A DNA stretch of 64,000 nucleotides from Verrucomicrobiota bacterium (lineage in GTDB: Bacteria > Verrucomicrobiota > Kiritimatiellia > JAHIZV01): contig JAHIZV010000237.1 of the NCBI GenBank assembly GCA_018814445.1, positions 49,729-113,728 of the forward strand. The letters run 5' to 3'. The position numbers and the translations under genes were made by a program. Positions 3,300-33,832 of this stretch are shown here, one piece after another. Numbering within the stretch: position 1 is the stretch's first letter; each line of letters opens with the position of its first letter. Below the pieces are notes generated by a model, which worked only from the letters and a program-made list of their open reading frames with translations, was not told the origin of the DNA and did not search any database.

Positions 3300-4523
3300 T
3301 TACGGCGTCCTCGTCGACCAGACGCTGAAAGCGCTCTCCAGCGGTTCCGTGCGGTCCCTGATGTAGACTTCGATGTCATTCACGACCACCTGATCACCGG
3401 GATCCAGACTCCCGTCTCCGAGCGCAGCATTGACTTGCGGCGTGATGTCTACGTACTCGTGACCGTTCGGAAGGTGCCCATCCGGCGTGACATACCGGCG
3501 TTCTGTATTCCAGTCCAACGCACACCAGAACGGCTCCGTGAGTGCAGGACCGCCTGCCCCCGAGTCATTCCGCAGCGTCAAAGTTCCGAAGAACGTACCG
3601 CGCTGACGGTCGAGAGTCCAAGTGAGCTTCGGAGACATAAGCATCGCTGTGACATTCGTGAATACCCCTGAAGCGACTTCGCCTGCCCACCACTCTTCGG
3701 CAGTCACCTGCCACGACGCACCGTTCGCCAGCGATTCACTGCGCCATTGCAGCGCGTACGCCGCGTCATGAATAGACGCATCCACCGTATCGGGAAGCGT
3801 TCCCCACTTACATGCGTTCCGCACGAGTTGAAAGTGGGCTTCATGGTGAGTGTCAGCGAGAGAGCCCCCCACCCCCTTCAACCCCATGAAGACCGGAGGA
3901 TCATTCGTGGTCAGCACGTACACGGTATTGGAACCTGCGCCCCAATGACCTGTCGCGACATCCTCGCCGGATGGAGATACATCACCGCCGTGGACAAAGC
4001 GAAGATTGTTGAAAGAGACGCCGGAACCGTTGGCGATAGTCCACTGCAGGGAGAAAAAAGGGTTCCCGTTCACATAAGAAACCAACTGGGTCACGACCAC
4101 ACCGCGTTGTCCCGCGCGAAGCGCTGTCTCAATCGACCAGGCATCGGGCATCGAATGGGAGACGGGCGTAAACCGGTCCGTACTCTCATCATCCCACAAC
4201 GCAAACGTGCTGGTACCGTTGCCAAATCGTGACGAAGCATTTGTGCCGTCGAGAAACAGAGCGGACCCTGTCGCAAAGGCAGAGTAGAATTGCGGCCGCG
4301 TCTCCGTCCCCTCCTGCCGCGTGACACCGATCGTTCCGTATTCGTCCACGCTGATCCGGAGAGGGTCGCCAGAGATTTGGAGCGTCTGCGTTGTCGCCGC
4401 CAACGGCAGCAGAACAAGAAGAGCTCCCAACATCGTACATCGAACATAACGCACCGAACATCGAAGGACTCCTGCAGTTCGGTGTTCGATGTTCAATGTT
4501 TGATGTTCGATGTTCCCGCTCAT
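3300..4523 (-). CDS. Secreted hypothetical protein (about 377 aa mature)
   Basis: The long ORF has an ATG at 4523 whose stop/start overlap with the upstream β-barrel gene is TGATG (one shared nucleotide). An alternative ATG at 4433 sits immediately before the hydrophobic signal sequence MLGALLVLLPLAATTQTLQ. The segment between the two starts is encoded by the palindromic repeat. No homolog is recognised by eye. Confidence 0.55.
   Translation of the reverse strand: MSGNIEHQTLNIEHRTAGVLRCSVRYVRCTMLGALLVLLPLAATTQTLQISGDPLRISVDEYGTIGVTRQEGTETRPQFYSAFATGSALFLDGTNASSRFGNGTSTFALWDDESTDRFTPVSHSMPDAWSIETALRAGQRGVVVTQLVSYVNGNPFFSLQWTIANGSGVSFNNLRFVHGGDVSPSGEDVATGHWGAGSNTVYVLTTNDPPVFMGLKGVGGSLADTHHEAHFQLVRNACKWGTLPDTVDASIHDAAYALQWRSESLANGASWQVTAEEWWAGEVASGVFTNVTAMLMSPKLTWTLDRQRGTFFGTLTLRNDSGAGGPALTEPFWCALDWNTERRYVTPDGHLPNGHEYVDITPQVNAALGDGSLDPGDQVVVNDIEVYIRDRTEPLESAFSVWSTRTP
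4434..4516. repeat. Imperfect palindromic (AACATCG)n repeat element, copy A of 3
   Basis: The left arm carries catcgaacat...ccgaacatcgaa. The right arm carries ttcggtgttcgatgttcaatgtttgatgttcgatgttc, with a CTGCAG centre. The same element is present at 20064-20158 and 33731-33832. Confidence 0.6.
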
Positions 4524-5788: not shown

Positions 5789-7395
5789 CACGGTTTCCTC
5801 ACCCTGAAATATCCTTTGCGATCCTCCGGCGGTGTGACCTTTGTTGTCACGCCCGTAACGGGTCCGCCCATCGGCATCCAATTCGTTCCCGGCAGAACCG
5901 GACTGAATTCGATGAGGTATACCCCGCCCTCCGATTTTCCGCTGCCGCCCTCATCCCACGTTATGGCTTTCAACCCGGCCTTGTCGTGGCCGAAGAGAAC
6001 AATACCGAGGAACTCCTTCGTGCCGCCGCCACCCCCTGCTCCGCCGCCGCCAATCCCGGGCAGTCCTGTCCATGCGTACGTGTCGTCCAGATAGACCGTT
6101 CCGGCTGACCCCGACACCCAGGAACCGGATCCCCCCGCGCTGACCATAGTCATCCCATTGGTGTTGCTGGAACCGGAAGGATAATAGACCGCGACCCTCC
6201 CCCCGCCTCCCGCGACTTCGTTGCCGCCGCCGTTAGCCCGAATGGTTCCATTGCCTGTCAGCCCGCCCGTCTCAATGTAGATCGTGCCTCCAGAACCACC
6301 CCCGGCCCCATCGCCACCCCCCGCGGAACCGTCGGCCGTTATGACACCATCCAGATCAAGCGATCCGGCCAGAATCCTGATCCAGCCGCCACCATCGCCG
6401 CCTGCCCACGAGTCACTGCCACCGCGTGATCCACCGGATCCCAGTGCCGCGGGATTCGTCGCGGTTCCGTAAACCGGATTGGGCGTGCCGCCCCCAGCGC
6501 CGCCGAGACCTCCGTACGATCCGCCGGATCGCTGTGAAGAACCGGTTGCATTGTTCAACGTGCGTCCGGAGTTGAAATTGATGTTAGGCGAGTGCTCTCC
6601 ACCCAGGTACCCGCGTCCGATCACATTGATCGAACTGTTGCTCGAAATTTGAAGTCTCTCGGCAAGTAATTGCAGCCGCGATTCCATAACCGTGGATGCA
6701 TCGAAGTGCGTCACCCCCCCGAACTGAGCCACGACCATGTTGCTCGTCACATGCAGAACATCGCCGAGAACAAGGAATCCCCCGCGTCGGAAAAAGACAT
6801 TGTCGTATACATGGACGGCAGCATAGGTGTCTCCAATCGAGGCGACATCTGTGAGCATTGTCCCACCGCTCACATCCACGGTAATGGACGTCGCGGTATT
6901 ACCGCTGACCGTGAAGACTTCTGTCTGATCCAGATTCGGGTTGACGGTGAGACCCACGAGTCCGCCCGGGAGCAGGGCCACCTTCTGATCTGTTGAGAAT
7001 TCATTGGAACTGACGGCCTGAATAGTCCCGTATCCCACCCGTGTCAAAGGAGTCCAACGCGTGGACGTGGAGCCGGATTTGTTGTCGTCAATGTACAGAT
7101 CGCCATACGTTTGTGCGTGCTGCCTCATCACAATCGTTCCGGCACTGCCCGGCGACCAAGATCCCGATCCGCCAAAAACCGTCACATTGCTGAGACTATT
7201 GAGATTATCACCTCCACCACCCAGCGCACCGTAGGTGATTCCGATCCGGCCTCCCGCACCCCCGACTTCATTTCCTCCGCCGTTCGCGGATACAGTTCCG
7301 GTGCCACGCAGGGTTCCCACTTGAATCTTAACGGACCCTCCGGACCCGCCCCCGGCTCCGTCACCATGACCGGGACCGCCCGCAGCCGTGATCGT
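5788..7395 (-). CDS. C-terminal segment of the giant Gly-rich repeat protein (same frame as 7396..15054, downstream of an in-frame TGA); ends in an FN3-like domain
   Basis: Same reading frame as the 2552-aa ORF. The repeat motifs (GDGAGGGSGG, ANGGGNEVGG, YGDLYIDDNK) continue uninterrupted across the stop. C-terminus ...GYFRVRKP. Confidence 0.5.
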   Translation of the reverse strand, partial: TITAAGGPGHGDGAGGGSGGSVKIQVGTLRGTGTVSANGGGNEVGGAGGRIGITYGALGGGGDNLNSLSNVTVFGGSGSWSPGSAGTIVMRQHAQTYGDLYIDDNKSGSTSTRWTPLTRVGYGTIQAVSSNEFSTDQKVALLPGGLVGLTVNPNLDQTEVFTVSGNTATSITVDVSGGTMLTDVASIGDTYAAVHVYDNVFFRRGGFLVLGDVLHVTSNMVVAQFGGVTHFDASTVMESRLQLLAERLQISSNSSINVIGRGYLGGEHSPNINFNSGRTLNNATGSSQRSGGSYGGLGGAGGGTPNPVYGTATNPAALGSGGSRGGSDSWAGGDGGGWIRILAGSLDLDGVITADGSAGGGDGAGGGSGGTIYIETGGLTGNGTIRANGGGNEVAGGGGRVAVYYPSGSSNTNGMTMVSAGGSGSWVSGSAGTVYLDDTYAWTGLPGIGGGGAGGGGGTKEFLGIVLFGHDKAGLKAITWDEGGSGKSEGGVYLIEFSPVLPGTNWMPMGGPVTGVTTKVTPPEDRKGYFRVRKP

Positions 7396-10300
7396 TCAAT
7401 TGACCGTCAGGTCATTCGAGACGACGAGATCGATTCGTCCACCACCGCTTCCACCGGCCCATGAATCGCTTCCGCCTCGCGAACCACCCGAACCGAGGTA
7501 GATGGGATTATGAGGGTCGCCATAGGCAGGATTGGGAGATCCTGCTCCGTAGGAAGCCCCATATCCGCCAAACGAGCCGCCCGACCTCTCCGATGAACCT
7601 ATCTGCCCCGCGAGCGTCAGTCCGTTGTTATTGTCCGTGTTGCCCGGCCTCTCACCACCTCGATAGCCTCGCGCGGTCACATCTATCGAACTCCCGGCGT
7701 CGATCTCAATGTTGTTCGCGTGAACCTGAAGGCCGTTTTCGTTGCTGAGTGTATGCGTCAGGACGCTGTTCGTCTGGAGCCGCAAGGCACCGGCCACGTT
7801 CAAGCCCGCATCTGCGGTCACCCGGGCCTTGTTCCTGAAGATGATGTTGTCGAATTCATAGCCGTCCAGGATAGGACACTTATCGATCGCGGGTTTCACA
7901 TTGTGCCCGTCAACGACCAGATCCCCATAAGTCTGGCTGGAATGCTTCAGGAACAGCGTGCCATTGCCTCCATTCGTCCAATTTCCGCTTCCGGCTCTGG
8001 CTTCAAGGTGACTCTGGTCGATAGCAAGCGTGTTGTAGCGAATGGCTATCCTTCCACCGCCACCACCGACCTCGTTGCCCCCGCCATTCGCGCGAATGAT
8101 GCCGCTTCCCGAAAGACTGTCTGCGTGTATGTCAATCGTTCCGCCCGAACCGCCTCCGGCCCCATCACCATGACCGCCCTGCCCGTTCGCGGAGATGATC
8201 CCATCATTCGCGATCGCACCCGCGGTTATGCGGACCCAACCACCGCCATCGCCACCCCACCAGGAATCACTGCCGCCACGCGAACCGCCCGAACCCAACT
8301 CCTCCGGGTTTGTCATGCTTCCATAGACGGAATTCGGCGCCCCAGCACCCCAATGACCTCCAAGTCCACCGTAGGAACCGCCCGCCCGCTCCGTGGAGCC
8401 GGCGGAGTTGTTCTCTGTCCGTCCCGAATTCACGCCGACGTTCTGATGGTGTTCGCCACCGAGATAGCCGACCGCATCGGCGTTGATATACCCGTTGCTG
8501 CTCAGTTCCAGCGTGCCTACCGTCAGATCCAGCCGTGATTCAAAGGTCGTCGTCGCTTTGAAATGCGTCAGTTTCCCGTGCTCATCGATTCTTACCGTAT
8601 CGCCAACAACGACCTTGTCTCCGCATCTGAGGGAACCGCCTCGCCGGAAGAAAATATTGTCAAAGCGATGTATCGCAGCATAACCGTCACCGGGCGCTGC
8701 CACGTCCGTGAGATTCGTGCCACCGCTCACATCGACCGTTATGGATGTCGCCGAGTTGCCGATAATGTCGAAGGTTGTCTGCTGCGTCAGGTCAGGATTG
8801 ATCTCCAGTCCGACGAGACCGCCGGGAAGGACGCGAACCGTCTGGTCCAGCAAGAGCATATTCGAGGACAACGCCTGCACCGTTCCGAAACCGACGTGCG
8901 TCAACCATGTGTAGTTTGTGGATGTCGAGACCTTGTTGTCGTCCACATACAGGTCACCGTAGCTTTGACTATGCCGCCTCATGACGACCGTTCCCGCCCC
9001 GCCCGGCGCACTCCACGTCCCGGATCCCCCGAACGCGCCGATATTGCGCAAGTCATTCAGATCGTCACTTTTCCCGCCGAGATAGTCATAGTCGATCAGA
9101 ATCCGACCGCCGCCACCGCCGATTTCGTTCCCGCCGCCATTCGCGCTGATACTACCGCTTCCTCGCAGAAGCGAGGTGTCGATCTTGATAGACCCGCCCG
9201 AGCCACCACCGGCGCCATCACCTGCACCAACCTGCCCGTCTGCCCTGATAACCCCTTCAACAACAACGGCTTCGGACGCTTCTATCGTGACCCTTCCGCC
9301 GCCGTTTCCGCCCGCCCAAGAGTCACTGCCTCCTCTCGATCCGCCGGAACCGAGGTACGCCGGGTTAAGATCCGAACCGTAAACAGGATTCGGAACCCCC
9401 GCGGAGGCGCCTCCGTATCCGCCGTACGATCCGCCTGCACTTTGAGAGGACCCCATCTGTTCCGCCAGCGTGAACCCGCTATTGTTAGGATTTCCATCGC
9501 GCTCGCCGCCGCGATAGCCCTTGGCACCCACATCGATCGAGCTGGAGGAGTCTATCTCCAGACGCTTGCACGTAATGCGTACGCCGTCGGTCAGCATCAG
9601 CGAATGCGTCATGATGCTACCGGTCAGAATCTCGATCTTGTTGCTGACTACGAGTTCATCATCGGCGACGACACGCGCCGTGTTCCTGATGATGATATTG
9701 TCGAAGACATGGCCCGGCGGGATCGGCAAAGCCGAGAAACTGGAACCCGCGCCCTGTCCATCAACGACGAGTGTTCCACCACCTTCATCGACCCCCTTGA
9801 GAAACACCGTGCCGTTTCCGCCATCGACCCAGTTGCCCTGACCGCCCAGGGCATGGAGCAGCGTCGTATCCCAAGTGTCGATGTCCACGTAGTGGACCGC
9901 AATCCGTCCACCCCCGCCCGCAACCTCGTTGCCGCCACCATCCGCGGTCAAATCGCCTCTTCCGCTCGCGGTCGTGACAATCAGGTAGACTGACCCGCCG
10001 GAACCGCCGCCGGCGCCATAGCCGTGCCCCGCCTGTCCGTCCGAAGTGATCAGGCCGTCGTTCACAATATTGATGGCCTGGATGAGAATCTTCCCGCCGC
10101 CGTCACCGCCCCACCAGGAATCACTCCCCCCGCGTGAACCACCCGACCCCAATTCGGAAGGCGCCGTTAAATCACCGTATAACGCGCACGGCGTCCCGCC
10201 CCATGCTCCACCTGTGCCTCCGTATGATCCTCCCGAACGCTGTGTAGAACCTGCGACGTTCCCTGACGTCCTCCCCTCATTCATGCCCGTGTTCGGAGCA

Positions 10301-13300: not shown

Positions 13301-15054
13301 AATACGCTGAGCCACTCATTATACAGGTGATTGCCGTCGCGGTCTCTTATCGCCTGGCTGACCCAGACCGTGTACTTCTCGCCGGGACGCCAGCGATTGA
13401 GCACACCGTCATCGACCTGCCAGATCGCCATGGAGCGGGAGCTCAGGTTCGTCTCGATCCTGATCTTCCCTTTCACCAGCCTGCCGGTGTCGTCGTAGAC
13501 GTTGAACGTACCGTTGGATCCCGTCGTTATGGTGTCGTGATTCATCAACTCGCTGAAGAACGCGACCACGGGCGACTCCGTCGAAATCCCCTGGGCGTTG
13601 TGCGCGGGCGCAACGGAGACAGCGGGAATACCCGCCGGAACGTCTGTCATCGGAGGATTGTGTCCGACCGCGCACCCGAGAGTCCCGACGACGACCTGGA
13701 GGCTGACATTCTGATCGGAGATGCCCATGCAGGATGAAATAGCCCCGCTTTCCGACGGGAGAACGGTGAAGGTCTCACTGATCGTCTCGCCCGGATCCAG
13801 ATGACCGAGCGCTCGCGTGACGGGCTCCTGCACGTATTCGCAGTCCGGCTCTCCCGTTGCCGCGTCCAGTTCACAATTCACAAGCTGCGCATCGGCGCTC
13901 ACATCGAGTTCAAGGCTGGCGTACATGGCGGGCAGTTCGCCGGTATTGAGTATTCTCACGGTCAGGTCATATGGCTCGCCGGCGATGACGAAGTCAGGAT
14001 GAAGCACGGTCACCTGGAAGTCCGGCGGCCCTTTCACTTCCACATCCGTTGTCGCGCTGCCATTAAAGGGGACGGCATCATCCCCCGCGATGCCCGGACC
14101 GACCACACTGCCCCCGAAGTTCACTGTGACGTCATGAATACCGATCTCATCGCCGCGAATGATGAACTCACGTTCCAGTTGACCCGGCTCGTCGGGGGTC
14201 CCCGGCAGAATGTCGCCGAAGGACACGATGCCATCGGCCGGTAGAGTGTGGCTCAAACCGCCGGCAGGAAACCCGATCTCGGCGACCACGTTGGAAAGCG
14301 TGAAAATACCCGATGTATTCATCAGCATCAGTCGAACAGAGAAGAACTCCTTCAGGCTCTTGATGCGGCCTTCAATAATGATCACGCCCGGTATGGGAGG
14401 AACTTCGATCGTTCCCGACGGTGAGACTTCCTGCGCGAAGAAGATGATCTCAGGCGGCAGTCTGGGTGCGTGTTTTTGCCCGGCAGGGTCGTCGGGCGGT
14501 GGCATCCTGTATGTCTCCGAACCTCCGCTGTTCCCGCCTGATCCTTTTGGAAACACAATGGGAAGGGAGATGGGGACCTCCTCTTTATCGATCGTCAGGA
14601 CGATCGTGAATGTCGACACGTTGAAGTTCTCCGGATCTTCAAGATCGATCACCCCGTCCGCAACCAACTGCTCAACTTCTTCCGTCGACAGCCGCTCCGA
14701 AGTGAGGCGCGAGACGACGATCTGATCGAGAGACAACTGCGTTACAGCGAGTTCAGCCGCTTCTGTGTTCCCGTACGAATCTGTCGCCGTCACCTGGATG
14801 TTGTTCACCGCGTTGCGGTTCAGAGGCAAATTGACCTCAAACGATCCACCCTCATCGGGAAGAACAGCGCTACCGGCGCCGCCCGGGGCGGTGACGTTGA
14901 CGGTGATTGCGGCGTCGGTCGGCATGGAGAGGCTTACGATGAGAAGAGAAAGCAGGAGAGCTGAGATGCGAATGGGAGAAAGGGAGAATGGGAGAGAGGG
15001 AGAGAATCTGCGTCTCCCATTCCTCCACTCTTCCTTTCTCCCACTCACCCTCAT
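7396..15054 (-). CDS. Giant secreted Gly-rich β-helix/β-roll repeat protein with Big_2-like Ig domains (2552 aa before the in-frame TGA)
   Basis: Long ORF with N-terminal hydrophobic segment ISALLLSLLIVSLSMPTDAA. It has at least five copies of an approximately 250-aa unit (GYLGGEH...GGSRGGSDSWxGGDGGG...GDGAGGGSGG...ANGGGNEVGGGGGRI...YGDLxVDxxNV). Big_2-like segments are also present (for example AGRVVALKRGAATISAAVGS). Its ATG overlaps the upstream stop as ATGA at 15051-15054. Confidence 0.7.
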   Translation of the reverse strand: MRVSGRKEEWRNGRRRFSPSLPFSLSPIRISALLLSLLIVSLSMPTDAAITVNVTAPGGAGSAVLPDEGGSFEVNLPLNRNAVNNIQVTATDSYGNTEAAELAVTQLSLDQIVVSRLTSERLSTEEVEQLVADGVIDLEDPENFNVSTFTIVLTIDKEEVPISLPIVFPKGSGGNSGGSETYRMPPPDDPAGQKHAPRLPPEIIFFAQEVSPSGTIEVPPIPGVIIIEGRIKSLKEFFSVRLMLMNTSGIFTLSNVVAEIGFPAGGLSHTLPADGIVSFGDILPGTPDEPGQLEREFIIRGDEIGIHDVTVNFGGSVVGPGIAGDDAVPFNGSATTDVEVKGPPDFQVTVLHPDFVIAGEPYDLTVRILNTGELPAMYASLELDVSADAQLVNCELDAATGEPDCEYVQEPVTRALGHLDPGETISETFTVLPSESGAISSCMGISDQNVSLQVVVGTLGCAVGHNPPMTDVPAGIPAVSVAPAHNAQGISTESPVVAFFSELMNHDTITTGSNGTFNVYDDTGRLVKGKIRIETNLSSRSMAIWQVDDGVLNRWRPGEKYTVWVSQAIRDRDGNHLYNEWLSVFKTTTTGLGDVDPPLLTLSIEPPVNPNYVLPGEIVRVNAYASDQGSGVARVELRIKDMSNPTNLYKLVDQKSVFHGNEPPFIFALDSSNLTTGRTYQLMATAYDGLFNGQNATISIVMAPTADPPTIVLPGDPVAPQLQGISVRLKPVALTGGVRRVRYFLDGALVPYKTVTLPPWQATLSTLTMSLTTHVVRAVAEDGLGQTGFDDYDFELVENLNMPVISFNESDGAVYVMGDIFSIDPSVEDDVGVRSIHVFIASATNLVSTNASPILINTTNLALGTHRVIVLATNNLGVANDRFDPDSYLEFTIIEPPPGVPPAAPMVTGVSPPEGLASKVTGTSVANARINIRNTNQNVAVSVYANSSGAFTATINANVGNVLSLVAYDFTQSPDPSPPTVAVVPPKPVIMSIRAYPSNAVLPSAGAFVDLVVTGFYQGGSASNVTGKATFSSSVPSVASVSSAGRVVALKRGAATISAAVGSNAATAEIFADIVKLTNITAAPKSVLLAGVGNTRQLAVTGQYNNGTSGPLNSGNTFVSGNPAIATVSLSGLITAVSDGLTQISVYRSGLPSAFVNVSVDTGMDPPPTVDILSPPSGSGVERNELVPVSVRAQDPTNGVTRIYLAVSGATTFTDQRQISPSKKDTTQVFNFTVSSNAPISGVITVRTWAVDTSAHTSTVDSIVLQLGDGTSPQVFISSPIPETAYGYGETVTVVVVASDAVGVKIVRCYATGALSSDETRIYGASVGGTNEVFSISVPFGAPYPDVTLHAEAWDDENNKGTAINVPIVLSDADITPPATEVTAVADPGVGTTATVTYEVTDGLDDLDHVEIYFRRDGYGTFNRYTDADGGNSLGHYDPGGVAVGSLIFDSAKMGGDGTYEFYSIGVDQYGNRGLPPTNATGVVTADEVRAFSAGTVWITISSPTNISLGNTAYDNVNLRIDGVTVTINGHHMFHNVELLNGAVVTHPDTTTTAEYGVDIDAWTVTVDSNSAVNVDELGYLGGEHAPNTGMNEGRTSGNVAGSTQRSGGSYGGTGGAWGGTPCALYGDLTAPSELGSGGSRGGSDSWWGGDGGGKILIQAINIVNDGLITSDGQAGHGYGAGGGSGGSVYLIVTTASGRGDLTADGGGNEVAGGGGRIAVHYVDIDTWDTTLLHALGGQGNWVDGGNGTVFLKGVDEGGGTLVVDGQGAGSSFSALPIPPGHVFDNIIIRNTARVVADDELVVSNKIEILTGSIMTHSLMLTDGVRITCKRLEIDSSSSIDVGAKGYRGGERDGNPNNSGFTLAEQMGSSQSAGGSYGGYGGASAGVPNPVYGSDLNPAYLGSGGSRGGSDSWAGGNGGGRVTIEASEAVVVEGVIRADGQVGAGDGAGGGSGGSIKIDTSLLRGSGSISANGGGNEIGGGGGRILIDYDYLGGKSDDLNDLRNIGAFGGSGTWSAPGGAGTVVMRRHSQSYGDLYVDDNKVSTSTNYTWLTHVGFGTVQALSSNMLLLDQTVRVLPGGLVGLEINPDLTQQTTFDIIGNSATSITVDVSGGTNLTDVAAPGDGYAAIHRFDNIFFRRGGSLRCGDKVVVGDTVRIDEHGKLTHFKATTTFESRLDLTVGTLELSSNGYINADAVGYLGGEHHQNVGVNSGRTENNSAGSTERAGGSYGGLGGHWGAGAPNSVYGSMTNPEELGSGGSRGGSDSWWGGDGGGWVRITAGAIANDGIISANGQGGHGDGAGGGSGGTIDIHADSLSGSGIIRANGGGNEVGGGGGRIAIRYNTLAIDQSHLEARAGSGNWTNGGNGTLFLKHSSQTYGDLVVDGHNVKPAIDKCPILDGYEFDNIIFRNKARVTADAGLNVAGALRLQTNSVLTHTLSNENGLQVHANNIEIDAGSSIDVTARGYRGGERPGNTDNNNGLTLAGQIGSSERSGGSFGGYGASYGAGSPNPAYGDPHNPIYLGSGGSRGGSDSWAGGSGGGRIDLVVSNDLTVN

Positions 15055-18000: not shown

Positions 18001-20165
18001 TTGAATGCCGCTATGGCGGCCGCGTTGTTCGGGTCACTCGGATTCGCCCACGCATCGTTCAGAATCTGCTGTAGTGCTGCAATCCATTCCGTGAAGGAGG
18101 GCGTACTCCCACTCTTCCACTTGATGCCGAAGCTCAGGTCGTAGAGCAGATCGATCAACCGCACATCTTCGCCGCGCGCGTGTCGGCGCGCATACAGTTC
18201 GACACCCTTGTGGCTGATGCTGAACAGGTTGTTTGTGTCCAATGAAGGATTCAACTCGTTGCCGAATTCATCCCATACCCCGACTTCTTCCGCGCCGAGG
18301 GTCAGAAACGTATCTCTGACCAACTCAATCGCGTCCTGCAGGTCTATCCTCCCCGACAAATCACCAAGTCCACGGCCAAGAATACTGAAAAGGCTGGCAG
18401 AAGCGGCAGACGACGGATCATAGACCGTCGGCTCAGTGGCCAGTTCGCCCACGTCCACCGGCACCCCCTGCTCGACCCCGATCGGCAGGCGGATGAGCTT
18501 GTGGTTCGTCGGATTGAGCAGAAGAATCCGGGTCCCTATCGGGACGTTAAGAAGTGTGAAGCTGCCGTCGAGAAGAGACAACGTACTGATGACCGTTCCC
18601 TCAATCGATATCAGCGCCCCGACGATCGGGCTTCCCGTCTCTGAGTCAACCAGTCTTCCACTTACCGTCGTCAGACCTTCCTTTACATGGAATGCAGGGA
18701 CCGCGACGGCTGTCTCGCTCCCAGTCTTCAACTTTACGCCCCGCGCCCCCGTCGCGGCGGACGCCGCCACGGAGATATTCGCGATCGCTTGAGTCCCATT
18801 GTTTACGGTCAGCGAGTTGACTGTGATGCCGTCACCGAACGACGCGCTGCTGCCCCCCGCCGCAAAATGTGTGACGTAGGCGCCCGTTCCCTTGCCACTG
18901 ATGAGTACGCTGACGTTGGTATCGCCCTGGCGCGCGTCTGAAGGAAAAAGCCCCGTGATCAGAGAGGCGATGATCTTCTGCGCCGGAGGAAGGTTTGTCC
19001 CCGCGTTTACGCGGCCCGTCACTCGCTGTTCCGTGAGCAGCGTCGGACTCTCGGAATCGTCCACCACCAGAACGAGTTGATTGCTTTCGGCGGTCGCCTC
19101 GATATTGCTGACGGTGACGCTGACGATCGTGTCCGTGCTGTAGAGTGATCCGTCATACGAGCGGCACGTGATGTTGTAGGTGCCGTCCTGCGAGTAGTCG
19201 GGCGCAAAGGTGATACCTCCCCCCGCCTGAACGAAAATCGCATTATCCGGCAGTGGAGAACATTCGATGCTGATTGGGTCTCCGTCGGGATCCGAGCCCG
19301 TGACCGGGATCATGACATTTTGTCCTTCATTCACCGACACCGACGCTGGCGCGGAAATGGTAGGCGGATTGTTGGTCGGTGTGACAAGAATCTGCACGAC
19401 CCTGCTCGTCGACAGGCCTGATTCATCCCACGCAGTGAACGTAACGGCGTAGACACCTTGCTGCCCCGGACTGGTTGCAAGCACGTAATCGCCTGTCGCG
19501 TTGAGACTGCTTGCAGATGTGAAGGCGGCATTAGGAAGGATAGGAGAAGCCCCGATGGAGACGACCTCCCCATCCGCATCATAACCGTAGAGTCTAAGGG
19601 CAAGCGTCTCACCCTCCATCACCACGTATGGCGGAACCTGTACAATATTCAATGTGGGCGGATGCTGCTGAAGAAGTCCACCCCGCGGACCGGGGTTATA
19701 CATGAAGCGGTCATATTTGGGCCGCTCAAATTGAAGGGCCTGACCAACGAAATGTCCTGACGCGAATTGCCCCGCCGTGAACTTCGCATCCAGATTGAAA
19801 TAGTACTTACTATACGGACCCGAGCCCTGCCCTCCGGACGCGCCCGGCATAACCACGCGATCGACGCGTCCGGAAACCAGGTCAACGGTCAGATCAATCG
19901 GCGGCATGGCTGCGGAACCGGAGTGATTCGCGGCAACGGAGGCGACCGTGGAAACCAGCGTCCCGTTCGCGCGATCCAACGCCGTGCGCGTTCTTCCCGA
20001 CATAACCTCAATCTGCGCGCTGATATCAGGAGCCTGTGCGGCGGCGTTGCGGCCCCCTAATCCCAACATCGAACATAGAACAACCAACATCGAACATCGA
20101 ATGATAAGGTGTCTTCTGTGTTGAATGTTCGGAGTTCGATGTTCGATGTTCGATGTTCTTATCAC
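15051..20165 (-). CDS. Large secreted multidomain protein (Ig/cadherin-like repeats, carboxypeptidase-regulatory-like β-sandwiches, NHL/β-propeller-like region), 1704 aa
   Basis: Long ORF. A GTG at 20163-20165 overlaps the stop of the upstream small gene as GTGA. An alternative ATG at 20090 immediately precedes the signal sequence MLVVLCSMLGLGGRNAAAQA. Motifs: PPTISAPASVSVNEGQNVMIPVTGSDPDGDPISI, GRLVDSETGSPIVGALISIEG and DGDLYAVNG...KIFKF. Confidence 0.65.
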   Translation of the reverse strand: MIRTSNIEHRTPNIQHRRHLIIRCSMLVVLCSMLGLGGRNAAAQAPDISAQIEVMSGRTRTALDRANGTLVSTVASVAANHSGSAAMPPIDLTVDLVSGRVDRVVMPGASGGQGSGPYSKYYFNLDAKFTAGQFASGHFVGQALQFERPKYDRFMYNPGPRGGLLQQHPPTLNIVQVPPYVVMEGETLALRLYGYDADGEVVSIGASPILPNAAFTSASSLNATGDYVLATSPGQQGVYAVTFTAWDESGLSTSRVVQILVTPTNNPPTISAPASVSVNEGQNVMIPVTGSDPDGDPISIECSPLPDNAIFVQAGGGITFAPDYSQDGTYNITCRSYDGSLYSTDTIVSVTVSNIEATAESNQLVLVVDDSESPTLLTEQRVTGRVNAGTNLPPAQKIIASLITGLFPSDARQGDTNVSVLISGKGTGAYVTHFAAGGSSASFGDGITVNSLTVNNGTQAIANISVAASAATGARGVKLKTGSETAVAVPAFHVKEGLTTVSGRLVDSETGSPIVGALISIEGTVISTLSLLDGSFTLLNVPIGTRILLLNPTNHKLIRLPIGVEQGVPVDVGELATEPTVYDPSSAASASLFSILGRGLGDLSGRIDLQDAIELVRDTFLTLGAEEVGVWDEFGNELNPSLDTNNLFSISHKGVELYARRHARGEDVRLIDLLYDLSFGIKWKSGSTPSFTEWIAALQQILNDAWANPSDPNNAAAIAAFNTGRNLSPNPPVLNGATRLTKLQAFIMVSGFMSAAYHHRDDWVWAPTPPEDAFVMSLGESLSKAVHDFVCGPDAVAQVPGGKAGTYTITWERLAQEMGDYPTEAVFNSTNAVNRELPGFEDILSKYYMDGTTNSLAAARLQLENAFPGNPTIANIFNKDKYGVVAAVTSLVRITATDIHLRTNFIAIAGRDYSSGSIWAPFKVSWGHGTLSPMMFLALGTDPTVTSAVLIKSLAPAAPYLHSVKEVRRNIGSAYNPLYIPFVEILFYPSPDERVKKEETYAYRLWQWQPKGTTVSERAAMKIVAAGQETTDRSDFFSPHRDTNDTAKLVFRVPFPEPGHQYYRIDCIRGSENVVKKALDNTNTLAKVKPWLSGYLDDPLAASQDQVLKLGTRNIHPGKAFIEGERLDVSALSRVGSVFVRGAGTGFAPFGHIDLVADYDKPDRIYISIPDFKFNNDRGSGAIFLYRPEKSEMVEAVSHNSLFMQPGQVGMTMDSDGDLYAVNGASQMAYGGKIFKFYMDAVTGLATGRSHVANVNYFSQTLLRGRPTSIQDIAMGSKGTDAYDEELYLADNYDTTVKKIDVSWSEQYLGSNYANLAVAYHNVAKGLWGENESWSTWPDIFAFDAWTDLEFDLTKEWLYITQGNNIVRTKGDTAQGLFINGTVFDNATSCAFCESRYATYLFIADMAANRILRVPVSDLPLLVPSDPAQYSELMTAYTFIENVPHPMDVAIADDGKALIYVTDAGVQYTRFGFTGRALTEDDQPLVGAVVKLITAGGEEKTLADGNGYYTFGGYTAASVGILDVSHPLTNFTEDIVIDWRCGSTLRPAPCVVITSPADGEIVSNGTVTVRGTIFPADTDFTLTGGTLDASGGSYPLVFTGNDNDFIVNNVPLNTGDNYLTGRAAANGPYISGVSLSTRVRRQTAPATSQAVSGVAKDGDGNPIPGATVIVKVNGFEVTELTADGCGYYHEDGLPLGVLSVEVVE
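20064..20158. repeat. Imperfect palindromic (AACATCG)n repeat element, copy B
   Basis: Left arm caacatcgaacatagaacaaccaacatcgaacatcgaatg, loop ataaggtgtcttctgtg, right arm ttgaatgttcggagttcgatgttcgatgttcgatgttc. It lies in the junction between the small secreted-protein gene and the 1704-aa gene. Confidence 0.6.
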
Positions 20166-20728
20166 GGCGTCCCCCCCGCCGTAACGGCCACGTTGTCCAC
20201 CCGCACCGCGCTATCCCCGGCGACGAAGTTCAGGTCGTAGAGCTCGAAGATAACGATGACGTACGTGTGACTGTTGTTGAACGTACCGGAGAAATGCGAC
20301 CAGCCCGCGCCTTTCGGCGAATCGCCGATCGTTCCATTGATGTTGAAGTTTCCGTTTGCGTCGCAGTCGAAAAGGCCCTGCGACGCGTCGAACTTGTCGT
20401 TCTCGGTGATAAAATCGGAAAGCGTGTCGACGTAATAGACAGACGCATAGAAGGAATCATTGAAAGCGCCATCGGGGACCTCCACCGAAAGTGCGCTGCG
20501 GAAGTCGAATTCAATCGTGAACTGCCCCGCACCGACCTCATCCGCCTGAAACACAAACGCATGAACATCCTGCGTGTCCGCGAGCACGGCCTCGCCACCA
20601 GCTGACGTCACATGCCAGGCGGTCTTCCAATGGATAAGCGCAGAAGTGAAATCGCCGTTCAGAATCGCGGACGCACTGGTTGCGCCAACGAACAGCGCCA
20701 AAGCCCAAGCCAGTCCTAACCTCCTCAC
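20162..20728 (-). CDS. Small secreted β-sandwich protein (NGDF-type carbohydrate-binding/galactose-binding-like N-terminal motif), first gene of the giant-protein cluster
   Basis: GTG start at 20726-20728, 5 nt after a strong AAGGAGG RBS. Signal peptide VRRLGLAWALALFVGATSASA followed by ILNGDFTS. The upstream part of the longer tracked ORF (from 20815) lacks an RBS. Confidence 0.5.
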   Translation of the reverse strand: MRRLGLAWALALFVGATSASAILNGDFTSALIHWKTAWHVTSAGGEAVLADTQDVHAFVFQADEVGAGQFTIEFDFRSALSVEVPDGAFNDSFYASVYYVDTLSDFITENDKFDASQGLFDCDANGNFNINGTIGDSPKGAGWSHFSGTFNNSHTYVIVIFELYDLNFVAGDSAVRVDNVAVTAGGTP

Positions 20729-20744
20729 ACAAGCCTCCTTAGCC

Positions 20745-20790
20745 TCCACGGCTAATATTTTATTAGACTCTTTTTCGTTCAGGAATACAA
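20745..20790 (-). promoter_or_regulatory. Candidate σ70-type promoter for the giant-protein cluster
   Basis: On the minus strand: TTGTAT (revcomp of 20775-20780), 17 bp spacer, TCTAAT (revcomp of 20752-20757). It sits in an AT-rich stretch about 25 nt upstream of the AAGGAGG RBS. Confidence 0.25.
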
Positions 20791-20838
20791 GAACCGGGAG
20801 GAACAATTCCCACATGTCCCCATAGAACTCCTGTCATC

Positions 20839-20878
20839 TGTCACATTCAGGTGTGCGATCGCACACCTGAATGTGACA
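20839..20878. promoter_or_regulatory. 40-bp perfect palindrome in divergent intergenic region; candidate dimeric-regulator operator
   Basis: The sequence is TGTCACATTCAGGTGTGCGA immediately followed by its exact reverse complement TCGCACACCTGAATGTGACA. It lies between the cluster promoter (minus strand) and the trmFO start (plus strand). Confidence 0.5.
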
Positions 20879-20912
20879 ACTTCCCGGCTTTCGCTTCCTT
20901 TGCCGCGGCGGA

Positions 20913-22289
20913 ATGACGCTCGCAACGCAAGCCATTGGCCCTTACATTTTCCGAATGACGCAACTTATCATCATCGGCGGAGGCCTCGCCGGCAGCGAAG
21001 CCGCGTGGCAGGCGGCTGAGCGCGGAATCTCAGTTGCTCTGGTGGAGATGCGACCGGGAACGACGACGGGAGCACACCGAACCGGAAACCTGGCTGAACT
21101 TGTCTGTTCCAACTCTCTTGGTTCCGATCTGCCTGACCGGGCATCCGGCGTGTTGAAATCTGAACTGCGCCGACTGGGTTCGCTTCTCATGACGTGCGCA
21201 GACAGGACAGCCGTGCCTGCCGGAGGTGCGCTGGCTGTGGATCGCGATGCCTTCGCCGAACTTGTCTCGCAGAAACTGTCCGGAAATCCGAATATTGAAA
21301 TCGTTCGTGAGGAGGCGGTCTCCGTTCCCGACGGACCCGCCATCATCGCGTCTGGGCCCCTTACGTCTTCAAGACTTTCCCGCGCAATAGCGGAACTGAG
21401 CGGCGAAGAGCATCTCTTCTTCTTCGACGCCATCGCACCGGTTGTCAGCGCCGATTCAATCAACATGAATATCGCTTTCTGCGCATCGCGTTACGGACGC
21501 GGCGAGCAGGATGAAGGCGACTACATCAACTGTCCTTTCACGAGGGAGGAATACGAAGTCTTCGTCGACGCGCTCCTGACAGCGGAGAGGATTTCCCTTC
21601 GCTCCTTTGAGAAGCTTGTGGAGTCTGGCGTACGGGCAGGCCCGCATCATTTCTTCGAGGGCTGTCTGCCTATTGAGATCCTCGCCCAACGGGGACGCGA
21701 TGCGCTCGCTTACGGCCCCATGCGACCTGTTGGCCTGACCGATCCGCGCACTGGCAGGCGTCCTTACGCGGCCCTTCAGCTCCGCCAGGATAACCTGGCG
21801 GCGAGCATGTACAACCTGGTGGGCTTTCAGACCAACCTGAAGTTCCCCGAGCAGAAGCGTGTATTCAGTCTGATCCCCGGACTGGAGAAAGCCGACTTCA
21901 TCAAGTATGGCCAGATGCACCGGAACACCTTCATCGCCGCTCCGAAACTGCTGAGACCTACGCTTCAATGGCATGATCGCGACGACCTGCTCTTCGCAGG
22001 ACAACTTACGGGTGTGGAAGGGTATGCCGGAAACATTGCGACCGGATTGCTGGCGGGAATCAACATGTGCCGAATACTGAACTGTGAGGAGCCGATGGTC
22101 TTTCCTCAGACAACCATGCTCGGTGCTCTGTGCCACTACGTGACACACGCAGACATGAAGGACTTCCAACCCATGAAAGCCAACTTCGGCATCCTTCCCC
22201 AGCTCGCCAATCCGCCCAAGGGTAAAAGGCCAAGAGCCGAAGCATATGCTGAGCGGGCAAAGGATGCGCTCGAGGATTCCCTAAGGTAG
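20913..22289 (+). CDS. trmFO: Methylenetetrahydrofolate--tRNA-(uracil-5)-methyltransferase TrmFO
   Basis: [42 protein letters not shown] and the overall length match the TrmFO/Gid family. An alternative start lies at 20955. Confidence 0.85.
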
Positions 22290-33730: not shown

Positions 33731-33832
33731 GGAACATCGAACGCCGAACATGAAACATCGAACTTCAAATCGAAGTCATTGATGTCCATACTTCGATGTT
33801 CGTTGTTCGAAGTTTGATATGTTCGTTGTTTC
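33731..33832. repeat. Imperfect palindromic (AACATCG)n repeat element, copy C
   Basis: Left arm ggaacatcgaacgccgaacatgaaacatcgaacttcaaatcgaagt. Right arm acttcgatgttcgttgttcgaagtttgatatgttcgttgtttc. It ends at the maf start codon. Confidence 0.55.

Follow-up and report, generated by a model that had tools for sequence, protein, structure and literature searches.

Long palindromic operators are known from the phenylacetate (paa) regulon of Escherichia coli and Pseudomonas, in which the autoregulated repressor PaaX acts at divergent promoters; the E. coli site, TGATTC-N27-GAATCA, is a dyad of 39 bp, and no complex of PaaX with its operator DNA has been solved (PMC9493321). The present study deals with a palindrome of 40 bp at positions 20839-20878 of a 64-kb stretch of DNA (64,000 nucleotides of contig JAHIZV010000237.1; hereafter the window) from the metagenome-assembled genome (MAG) of a Verrucomicrobiota bacterium, where it lies between trmFO and a divergently oriented operon. 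The palindrome belongs to a family of dyads that bracket the gene of a PaaX-like protein in six lineages, and it is read here, with a probability of about 0.55, as an orphan box that would bind a PaaX-like dimer whose gene lies elsewhere in the genome and would modulate one or both of the divergent units. Both the principle of regulator and operator and long dyads of the PaaX type are known already; the dyad family, its bracket architecture and the orphan copies are, as far as could be found, undescribed, and no literature was found that combines Pontiella with PaaX, or Kiritimatiellota with transcriptional regulators and palindromes.

Several other described systems share features with this family. 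In the multi-operator looping systems lac (O1-O2-O3), gal (OE-OI) and deo, operator copies are placed upstream of the transcription unit, inside it or at its end, and downstream of it. REP/REPIN sequences, together with the RAYT genes, resemble the dyads as short intergenic palindromes that flank a cognate gene and have solitary copies elsewhere. Integron attC sites are likewise imperfect palindromes at gene boundaries, and related cassette arrays differ by a gene together with its site. The HIP1 palindrome of cyanobacteria (GCGATCGC) is also present at the exact centre of the window dyad; however, the other members of the dyad family have ACGATCGT, and the window shows no excess of GCGATCGC (5 copies where 3.6 are expected, a count of 5 being reached in 30 of 100 shuffles), so that a HIP1-type iterated palindrome was rejected.

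The palindrome and its family

The window reads TGTCACATTCAGGTGTGCGA directly followed by TCGCACACCTGAATGTGACA, i.e. two arms of 20 nucleotides (nt) that are complementary at 20 of 20 positions (100%) and separated by 0 nt, exactly the perfect, spacer-free 40-bp inverted repeat that the initial annotation of this DNA had described. That annotation had also called it very unlikely by chance, which agrees with an expectation of about 6e-8 perfect 40-nt palindromes in 64 kb (64000 x 4^-20). The runner-up among the perfect inverted repeats with a short spacer in the window has arms of only 9 nt, and no further matches to the half-site were found in the 64 kb with up to 3 mismatches (0 expected from 100 shuffles). 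Long perfect palindromes as such are not biologically rare, since five with arms of at least 17 nt were counted in 0.9 Mb of unrelated trmFO loci, where they are mostly terminators or local repeats. The parts of the window dyad are as follows.

20839..20878, no strand: 40-bp perfect dyad, an orphan copy of the dyad family associated with the PaaX-like gene, perfect in symmetry and unique
20839..20849, no strand: left outer block TGTCACATTCA, consensus tGtnAcATyCA, the proposed half-site for one protomer
20853..20864, no strand: central block GTGCGATCGCAC (TGACGATCGTCA in the family), holding the conserved CGATCG core
20868..20878, no strand: right outer block TGAATGTGACA, mirroring the left block TGTCACATTCA

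Logan contig L001 (1779 bp), from the same population and identical to the window over trmFO, begins at window position 20852, inside the palindrome, and covers the right arm in full and the left one over 7 nt; its source, SRR2540949, is deep groundwater biofilms of the Äspö laboratory (PMC5364579). Because this independent assembly carries part of the palindrome, the window dyad is no artefact created in assembling the MAG. De Bruijn assemblies with short k are expected to break at palindromes, and many Logan contigs with PaaX-like genes are only 0.9-1.4 kb long, which is close to the distance between the two dyads bracketing such a gene; we suspect that these assemblies break at the family dyads, hiding their genomic context.

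The exact half-site had no match in 185,579 reference genomes and the JGI metagenomes, in which the source MAG itself is not represented. When the upstream regions of trmFO were checked for inverted repeats in 80 loci from GTDB species genomes and in two more, a dyad was found only in L007, a Kiritimatiellae MAG from soda-lake sediment. There, a 40-bp zero-spacer near-palindrome, TGTAACATCCAATCTGACGA followed by TCGTCAGTCTGGATGTTACA, lies 170 nt upstream of trmFO and is like the window dyad in its exact length, in the outer TGTnACATyCA and in having CGATCG at the centre. A conserved trmFO leader element was rejected, the hairpins at the other trmFO loci being unrelated ones of terminator or local-repeat type. 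A degenerate pattern of 24 positions, built from the dyads of the window and L007, retrieved two metagenome contigs (L082 and L083). The window dyad agrees with the family consensus at all 24 of the 24 specified positions. In 0.97 Mb of fetched DNA the pattern identified five sites with at most 1 mismatch and no others with up to 6, and about 180 kb of Kiritimatiellota-type DNA held no additional orphan dyads.

A scan of IMG/VR for the dyad pattern, with a spacing of N6, yielded three matches to the pattern only, none of them dyad-symmetric, and no relatives of the PaaX-like protein were found in that database; with neither true dyads nor such relatives there, an origin from a phage or mobile element was rejected. 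The viral sequence L099 (IMGVR_UViG_3300027777_002092) has at 8530-8569 a CGATCG-centred palindrome, AAATCCATTTTAGACGATCGTCCAAAATGGATTT, in which the ATCCA block is one base farther from the centre. Translations of its open reading frames (ORFs) suggest a related sequence again near 6900-7000, and it has no PaaX-like gene; this palindrome is probably unrelated to the dyad family.

A PaaX-like gene bracketed by dyads

In L083, two dyads flank a gene for a protein of 270 amino acids (aa) with PaaX_M (2.8e-21) and PaaX_C (2.3e-9), whose homologues are found in Pontiella and Pontiellaceae (Kiritimatiellota). The layout of dyad, paaX-like gene and dyad is present in six lineages, namely L083; L084, which is Pontiella desulfatans (PDESU_03600); L085/L086, which are P. 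sulfatireligans, like the former a cultured species; L093; L087-L092; and L103. The PaaX-like proteins of these lineages are 50-75% identical, match PaaX_M with E-values down to 4e-23 and begin MWxxFHHPDISLPVVRRR. The first dyad (D1) ends 8-9 nt upstream of the paaX-like ATG in every case, and the second (D2) overlaps or abuts the stop codon, for which the outer bases of the dyad often provide the TGA or TAA; the spacing between D1 and D2, 856-863 bp, is kept at protein identities as low as 50%.

The paaX-like gene is the sole gene between the dyads in L087 and L103, and extra dyads follow downstream genes in L085 and L093, the final dyad of each lying between convergent genes. The order is D1-paaX-D2-(93 aa, 433 aa, TPR)-D3 in L093 and D1-paaX-D2-PrimPol/helicase-D3-(93 aa, 415 aa)-D4 in L085, so that what separates these loci is a single gene together with a single dyad, the insertion lying exactly at a dyad. 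An IS66 in L084 is a separate element.

Some genes in these loci deserve mention in their own right. The gene at 10857-13262 of L085 (P. sulfatireligans CAAHFH010000002.1) encodes an 801-aa protein with PrimPol and superfamily 2 helicase parts, of the CRISPR-associated PrimPol type (PADLOC PrimPol 2.3e-90, NCBIfam PrimPol_Msp 5.5e-25); its ATG lies 8 nt past a dyad and it is missing from the L093 operon. The operon downstream of the PaaX-like gene (L085 13379-14919, L093 10819-13400) encodes a very basic protein of 93 aa and a protein of 415-433 aa, neither of which has a match in Pfam, NCBIfam or PADLOC; L093 adds a tetratricopeptide repeat (TPR) protein, and in both loci a further dyad closes the operon. 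In L087 (8673-15583) and L103 (7564-16172) the bracketed gene lies within a conserved neighbourhood read as polyamine biosynthesis, with genes of the saccharopine-dehydrogenase type, for an Orn/DAP/Arg decarboxylase and for an arginine decarboxylase, the paaX-like gene being divergent from the first two; this neighbourhood hints at the targets of the ancestral regulator. P. sulfatireligans has a second paralogue, SCARR_04656.

Symmetry and co-variation of the dyads

In an alignment of 18 family dyads, columns A7, T8, C18, G19, C22, T30 and T34 are invariant and G23 is present in 17, tGtnAcATyCA-nnntGa-CGA being the consensus half-site. At the centre, 14 of the 18 have CGATCG, whereas the two lineages that are most distant have CGGCCG or CGGCCA. 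The two arms evolve in concert. Symmetry reaches about 95% at the outer positions 1-11 and about 97% at positions 4-11, compensatory changes occur at positions 1-6, 9 and 10, double changes are seen in 14 of 18 pairs, and paired cells amount to 86% overall, compared with 69% in shuffles and 25-40% with a slid partner. Positions 12-16, the inner hexamer region, are symmetric in only about 60% of cells. G.U accounts for 11 of the 56 non-Watson-Crick cells and is thus not enriched over the approximately 17% expected by chance. Individual dyads are symmetric at 14-20 of 20 positions, the window dyad being the extreme (20/20) and three dyads having 19/20.

The centres of the blocks are about 11.5 bp apart. 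Tight outer blocks and a self-complementary centre, with loose sequence between, point to a symmetric protein that reads one face of duplex DNA, and on the aligned sequences the symmetry pattern appears to suit protein contacts better than a continuous stem. The outer block is common to the copies within a genome and differs between genomes (TGTGACAT, GGTGACAT, TGGTAAAT, TATTAAAT and ACTATCAT); the ATTCA variant of the window is also found in the regulator-proximal dyad of L093 (L093_D1). Residues 44-58 or so of the PaaX-like protein, its putative recognition region, vary in step with the type of dyad.

Comparison with PaaX and its box

Judged by sequence profiles, by which the family was assigned, the PaaX-like protein is a distant member of the PaaX family, with matches to TIGR02277 (48 bits, cut-off 264) and the PaaX structure 8a39 (E = 0.006) that are weak but specific; 3kfw is matched at 5.6e-6. 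The AlphaFold model, with a predicted local distance difference test score (pLDDT) of 60, was too poor for a fold search. The protein retains a Cas2-like beta-alpha-beta motif with the invariant aspartate D111, matches to Cas2 being weak.

The dyad family resembles the PaaX box in being about 40 bp long with widely separated inverted blocks (the window dyad, at 40 bp and with inverted blocks more than 2 helical turns apart, shares this long-dyad character), in its association with a protein of the same Pfam families (PaaX_M and PaaX_C), and in its location at the regulator's own gene and in divergent promoter regions. It differs in spacing and in sequence, which is unrelated except for a short ATTC/GAAT coincidence, in having a third conserved block, CGATCG, at the centre, and in that paa genes are not nearby; furthermore, boxes on the regulator stop codon and after downstream genes have not been reported for PaaX. 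The window dyad was rejected as a box of the paa regulon, because TGTCACATTCA...TGAATGTGACA differs from TGATTC-N27-GAATCA in both sequence and spacing. As the geometry of the site fits the PaaX family and its sequence does not, the site is PaaX-box-like without being a paa-regulon box, and the differences in sequence and spacing indicate a different specificity class.

Genomic setting of the window dyad

The window dyad lies midway in a divergent intergenic region, 110 nt from the start codon of the leftward gene for a secreted protein and 76 nt from that of trmFO.

20729..20954, no strand: divergent intergenic region of 226 bp (by NCBI gene starts), which must contain the promoters of both flanking units
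20162..20728, - strand: first gene of the leftward operon, MBU0679560.1, 188 aa, GTG start at 20728 (NCBI), a candidate regulated unit
20955..22289, + strand: trmFO, MBU0679561.1, 444 aa, ATG at 20955, GIDA 1.2e-86, 100% to MBU0679561.1, a candidate regulated unit

The 188-aa protein has an N-terminus like a signal peptide and matches no Pfam, NCBIfam or PADLOC family; its GTG start is preceded, 5 nt upstream, by a Shine-Dalgarno sequence AGGAGG (20734-20739), and its gene is followed in the operon by those for proteins of 1704 aa and then 2552 aa with immunoglobulin-like (Ig) domains. The product of trmFO is the folate-dependent tRNA U54 methyltransferase. Anaerolineales, Poribacteria and Kiritimatiellae contribute about equally to the best matches of this TrmFO, which have 72-75% identity; with no close relative, the lineage of the MAG is isolated, and trmFO is a poor taxonomic marker here.

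The window as a whole is core chromosome, with rimO, rng, rodA, pbp2, mreBCD, maf, fab genes and plsX, and no transcription factor or mobile-element genes were found among the genes of its 64 kb. A protelomerase or telomere-resolution site was rejected on account of this core-chromosome setting and the absence of this type of dyad from IMG/VR. An intrinsic terminator, which the initial annotation had already dismissed, was likewise rejected: the terminator scan makes no call, a T-run is missing and the flanking genes are divergent.

A probable orphan box for a PaaX-like protein

The 40-bp dyad is the predicted cognate site of a distinct PaaX subfamily in Kiritimatiellota-type bacteria of the Planctomycetes-Verrucomicrobia-Chlamydiae (PVC) group. 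The proposed protein would have a region resembling a winged helix at its N-terminus, a Cas2-like middle domain and a helical C-terminal domain, and its dimer would contact both outer 11-bp blocks, centred about 23 bp apart, and the central CGATCG block, the three blocks being roughly one helical turn apart, on a single face of the DNA. The gene encoding the protein would offer it a box 8-9 nt ahead of the start codon and another on the stop codon; solitary boxes elsewhere would recruit the same protein, and the box in the window would modulate the operon for secreted and giant proteins, trmFO, or both. The dyad itself, its place in the family, the strict link of the family with the PaaX-like gene and the concerted, symmetric evolution of the arms are observed; binding of the dyad by the PaaX-like protein, a cognate gene in this MAG and a change in the expression of a flanking gene upon binding are inferred.

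The initial annotation had proposed a site for a dimeric regulator, possibly an operator of the leftward cluster, and this interpretation finds partial support. The first part gains from the dyad family bracketing a PaaX-family gene in six lineages, from the co-varying arms and from the 39-bp dyad of PaaX itself; the regulator it had suggested looking for next to the dyad is neither adjacent nor within the 64-kb window. As to the cluster operator, the distance of 110 nt resembles that between D1 and the divergent gene in L084 (107 nt) and L083 (103 nt), which lends the idea some support; on the other hand, no promoter was located and several family copies lie at sites without a promoter. The putative -35 element it had placed about 50 bp from the dyad was not recovered by the sigma-70 scan of 20600-21100.

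Looping of the lac, gal or deo kind could, purely by analogy, explain the pair D1-D2 (856 bp apart) and D3/D4; those systems differ in having auxiliary operators of a weaker kind, none of which is set precisely on a stop codon.

A number of points weigh against this reading of the window dyad. There is no PaaX-like gene within the 64-kb window, and the scan of 20600-21100 found no sigma-70-like promoter, although the sigma-70 consensus may not be that of the phylum. The link to trmFO is sporadic, the dyad being absent at trmFO in L008, L013, L104 and L105. The winged helix is not confirmed structurally by the poor AlphaFold model, and the correlation between protein and dyad sequences is partly expected from linkage alone. 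Simple operator logic does not account for the dyads on stop codons, nor for those lying between convergent genes (L085 D4, L093 D3, L087 D2 and L103 D2) at places that lack a promoter; it also leaves unexplained the stretch of 8-9 nt between D1 and the ATG, which has no recognisable -10 or Shine-Dalgarno sequence. Finally, point mutation cannot give rise to a box of 40 bp in which over 20 positions are constrained, so that orphans must be copied, and a mobile or relic element would be expected to be copied just as well.

If the binding of orphan boxes by a PaaX-like dimer is true, the window palindrome, from an uncultured deep-groundwater MAG, points to a conserved, undescribed pair of regulator and site in Kiritimatiellota, a phylum whose members have very large repertoires of secreted and glycan-degrading proteins and for which, to our knowledge, essentially nothing is known of transcriptional control. 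Since the site is long and specific (at least 24 constrained positions), the whole regulon should be readable directly from genomes, and P. desulfatans and P. sulfatireligans are cultured carriers that permit direct tests. The fixed placement of the boxes (8-9 nt before the start, on the stop and at operon ends) is unusual for operators and deserves explanation, and the family may extend what is known of how PaaX-family proteins read a 40-bp dyad.

Alternative explanations

A somewhat unlikely explanation is that the window dyad is a relic or dispersed palindrome with no regulatory role, left as a solo copy after insertion and deletion of a dyad-paaX-dyad unit or spread by recombination in the manner of REP-RAYT, the flanking genes being unaffected. 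The copying that orphans need, in place of point mutation, would be met by such an element. As each dyad is palindromic, a flanking pair forms both direct and inverted repeats, and a deletion between them would leave one copy; the patchy presence of the dyad upstream of trmFO in syntenic Kiritimatiellae loci (in L007, not in L008, L013 or L105) indicates gain and loss, and family copies do lie at non-promoter sites. The dispersed repeat unrelated to promoters that the initial annotation had set against its own proposal is found in part, the element being repeated, with several copies lacking a promoter, and yet single in the window. A further point is the minus-strand sequence GACATGTGGGA, located 23 nt away from the dyad, which matches the paaX-like start context in L084 and L085. 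On the other side, the window copy is perfectly symmetric and intact at all conserved positions, which is unexpected for an old, unselected relic; the PaaX-like family profile finds no remnant in six-frame translations of 20000-21000; no target-site duplications were seen at three orphans; and the copy density is very low, unlike that of REP families, with no other orphan in about 180 kb.

Two related candidates were rejected. A deleted paaX-like gene beside the window dyad gave no profile match, and the resemblance amounts to only 9-11 nt at an ATG. Identity with REP/REPIN-RAYT does not hold because the flanked gene carries PaaX_M and PaaX_C and matches no transposase family (Y1 HUH); REP/REPIN sequences are, moreover, imperfect hairpins of 20-35 nt, often clustered, whereas the dyad is strictly 40 bp with zero spacer, and their copy number of tens to hundreds per genome contrasts with one copy in 64 kb and no orphans in about 180 kb of related DNA. 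As a separate observation, the leftward gene in its longest ORF version opens with GACATGTGGGA (window 20813-20826, - strand; MWE...), and the start contexts that it matches are GACATGTGG (L084) and ATGTGGGA (L085).

It is improbable that the dyads and the PaaX-type protein with its Cas2-like domain form an undescribed self-propagating or cassette-organising system, of which the window palindrome would be a seeded or emptied site. The protein would then recognise the 40-bp palindromes flanking its own gene, delimit modules including the PrimPol-helicase and seed solitary copies, functioning much as REP-RAYT or integron cassettes do, though with a transcription-factor and Cas2-like scaffold. 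The dyads would be of greater interest if they organise or mobilise gene modules.

Also improbable, and slightly more so, is the simpler view that the dyads are boundaries or recombination sites of cassettes, i.e. crossover or insertion points for gene modules, the copy in the window being empty or used. The exact insertion of one gene plus one dyad at a dyad that distinguishes L085 from L093 speaks for it, as do the nature of the inserted gene, the CRISPR-associated-type PrimPol-helicase that starts 8 nt after a dyad, and the retention of the Cas2-like motif with D111 in the bracketed protein. Homologous recombination between repeats, causing a deletion, could explain the same difference equally well; none of the six lineages (0/6) has an associated recombinase, integrase or transposase, the paaX-like gene occupies a conserved chromosomal polyamine neighbourhood in L087-L090 and L103, neither dyad nor protein occurs in IMG/VR, and a fully palindromic core would give a recombination site no polarity. 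Identity with integron attC was rejected, no integrase being found in the window or in L083-L103; the extrahelical bases of attC give it strand polarity, whereas the dyads are symmetric duplexes with a palindromic core, and their loci, in contrast to integrons, lack an integrase and are chromosomal and syntenic.

We consider an element acting at the RNA level just as doubtful as a cassette boundary. Here the transcribed dyad would form a hairpin in the 5' untranslated region, serving in translation control, as a processing or stability site such as the substrate of a double-strand RNase, or as a terminator without a U-tract. In its favour, the predicted RNA hairpin has 18 bp and a GAUC loop (-35.6 kcal/mol, z = -7.7), the fixed distance of 8-9 nt is to the start codon and not to a recognisable promoter element, which would suit occlusion of the ribosome site, and copies at gene ends and between convergent genes occupy terminator-like places. 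Against this, positions 12-16 are unpaired in about 40% of cells, the G.U count (11/56) reveals no wobble bias, a T-run is missing, and the divergence of the flanking genes leaves no upstream transcript available for termination. The conserved CGATCG centre would be the loop, and a self-complementary loop is better explained by recognition of duplex DNA. A known RNA family was rejected, as none of Rfam 15 matched at the gathering score, the sole match being a spurious miRNA hairpin (25.7 against 90 bits).

A chance palindrome or an assembly artefact, in favour of which there is nothing beyond the general existence of fold-back artefacts, is excluded by the expectation of about 6e-8 per window, the dyad sequence in the independent Logan assembly, homologous dyads in at least eight other genomes, and mirroring that is limited to 20 nt per arm with unique flanks.

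Other palindromes and repeats

Repeated intergenic perfect palindromes with arms of 15-16 nt were noticed in other genomes of the trmFO set (Anaerolineales, Poribacteria), namely in L028 (5823-5855 and 12738-12770), L002 (9353-9387 and 13113-13146) and L010 (12882-12915), one of those in L028 lying 146 nt upstream of trmFO. They are different families, and such elements are common.

The window itself contains hairpins of tandem heptamers, (GAACATC)n facing (GATGTTC)n, at the gene junctions 4429-4515, 20065-20158 and 33732-33818. These three copies in 64 kb, some of which overlap predicted ORF N-termini such as MIRTSNIEHRTPNIQH of the 1704-aa protein, make up an intergenic repeat family of their own, with no relation to the 40-bp dyad. 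Another hairpin, at 14970-15046 in the junction of the 2552-aa and 1704-aa genes, consists of purine-rich repeats of 8/16 nt (GAATGGGAGAAAGGGA twice) facing their complement.

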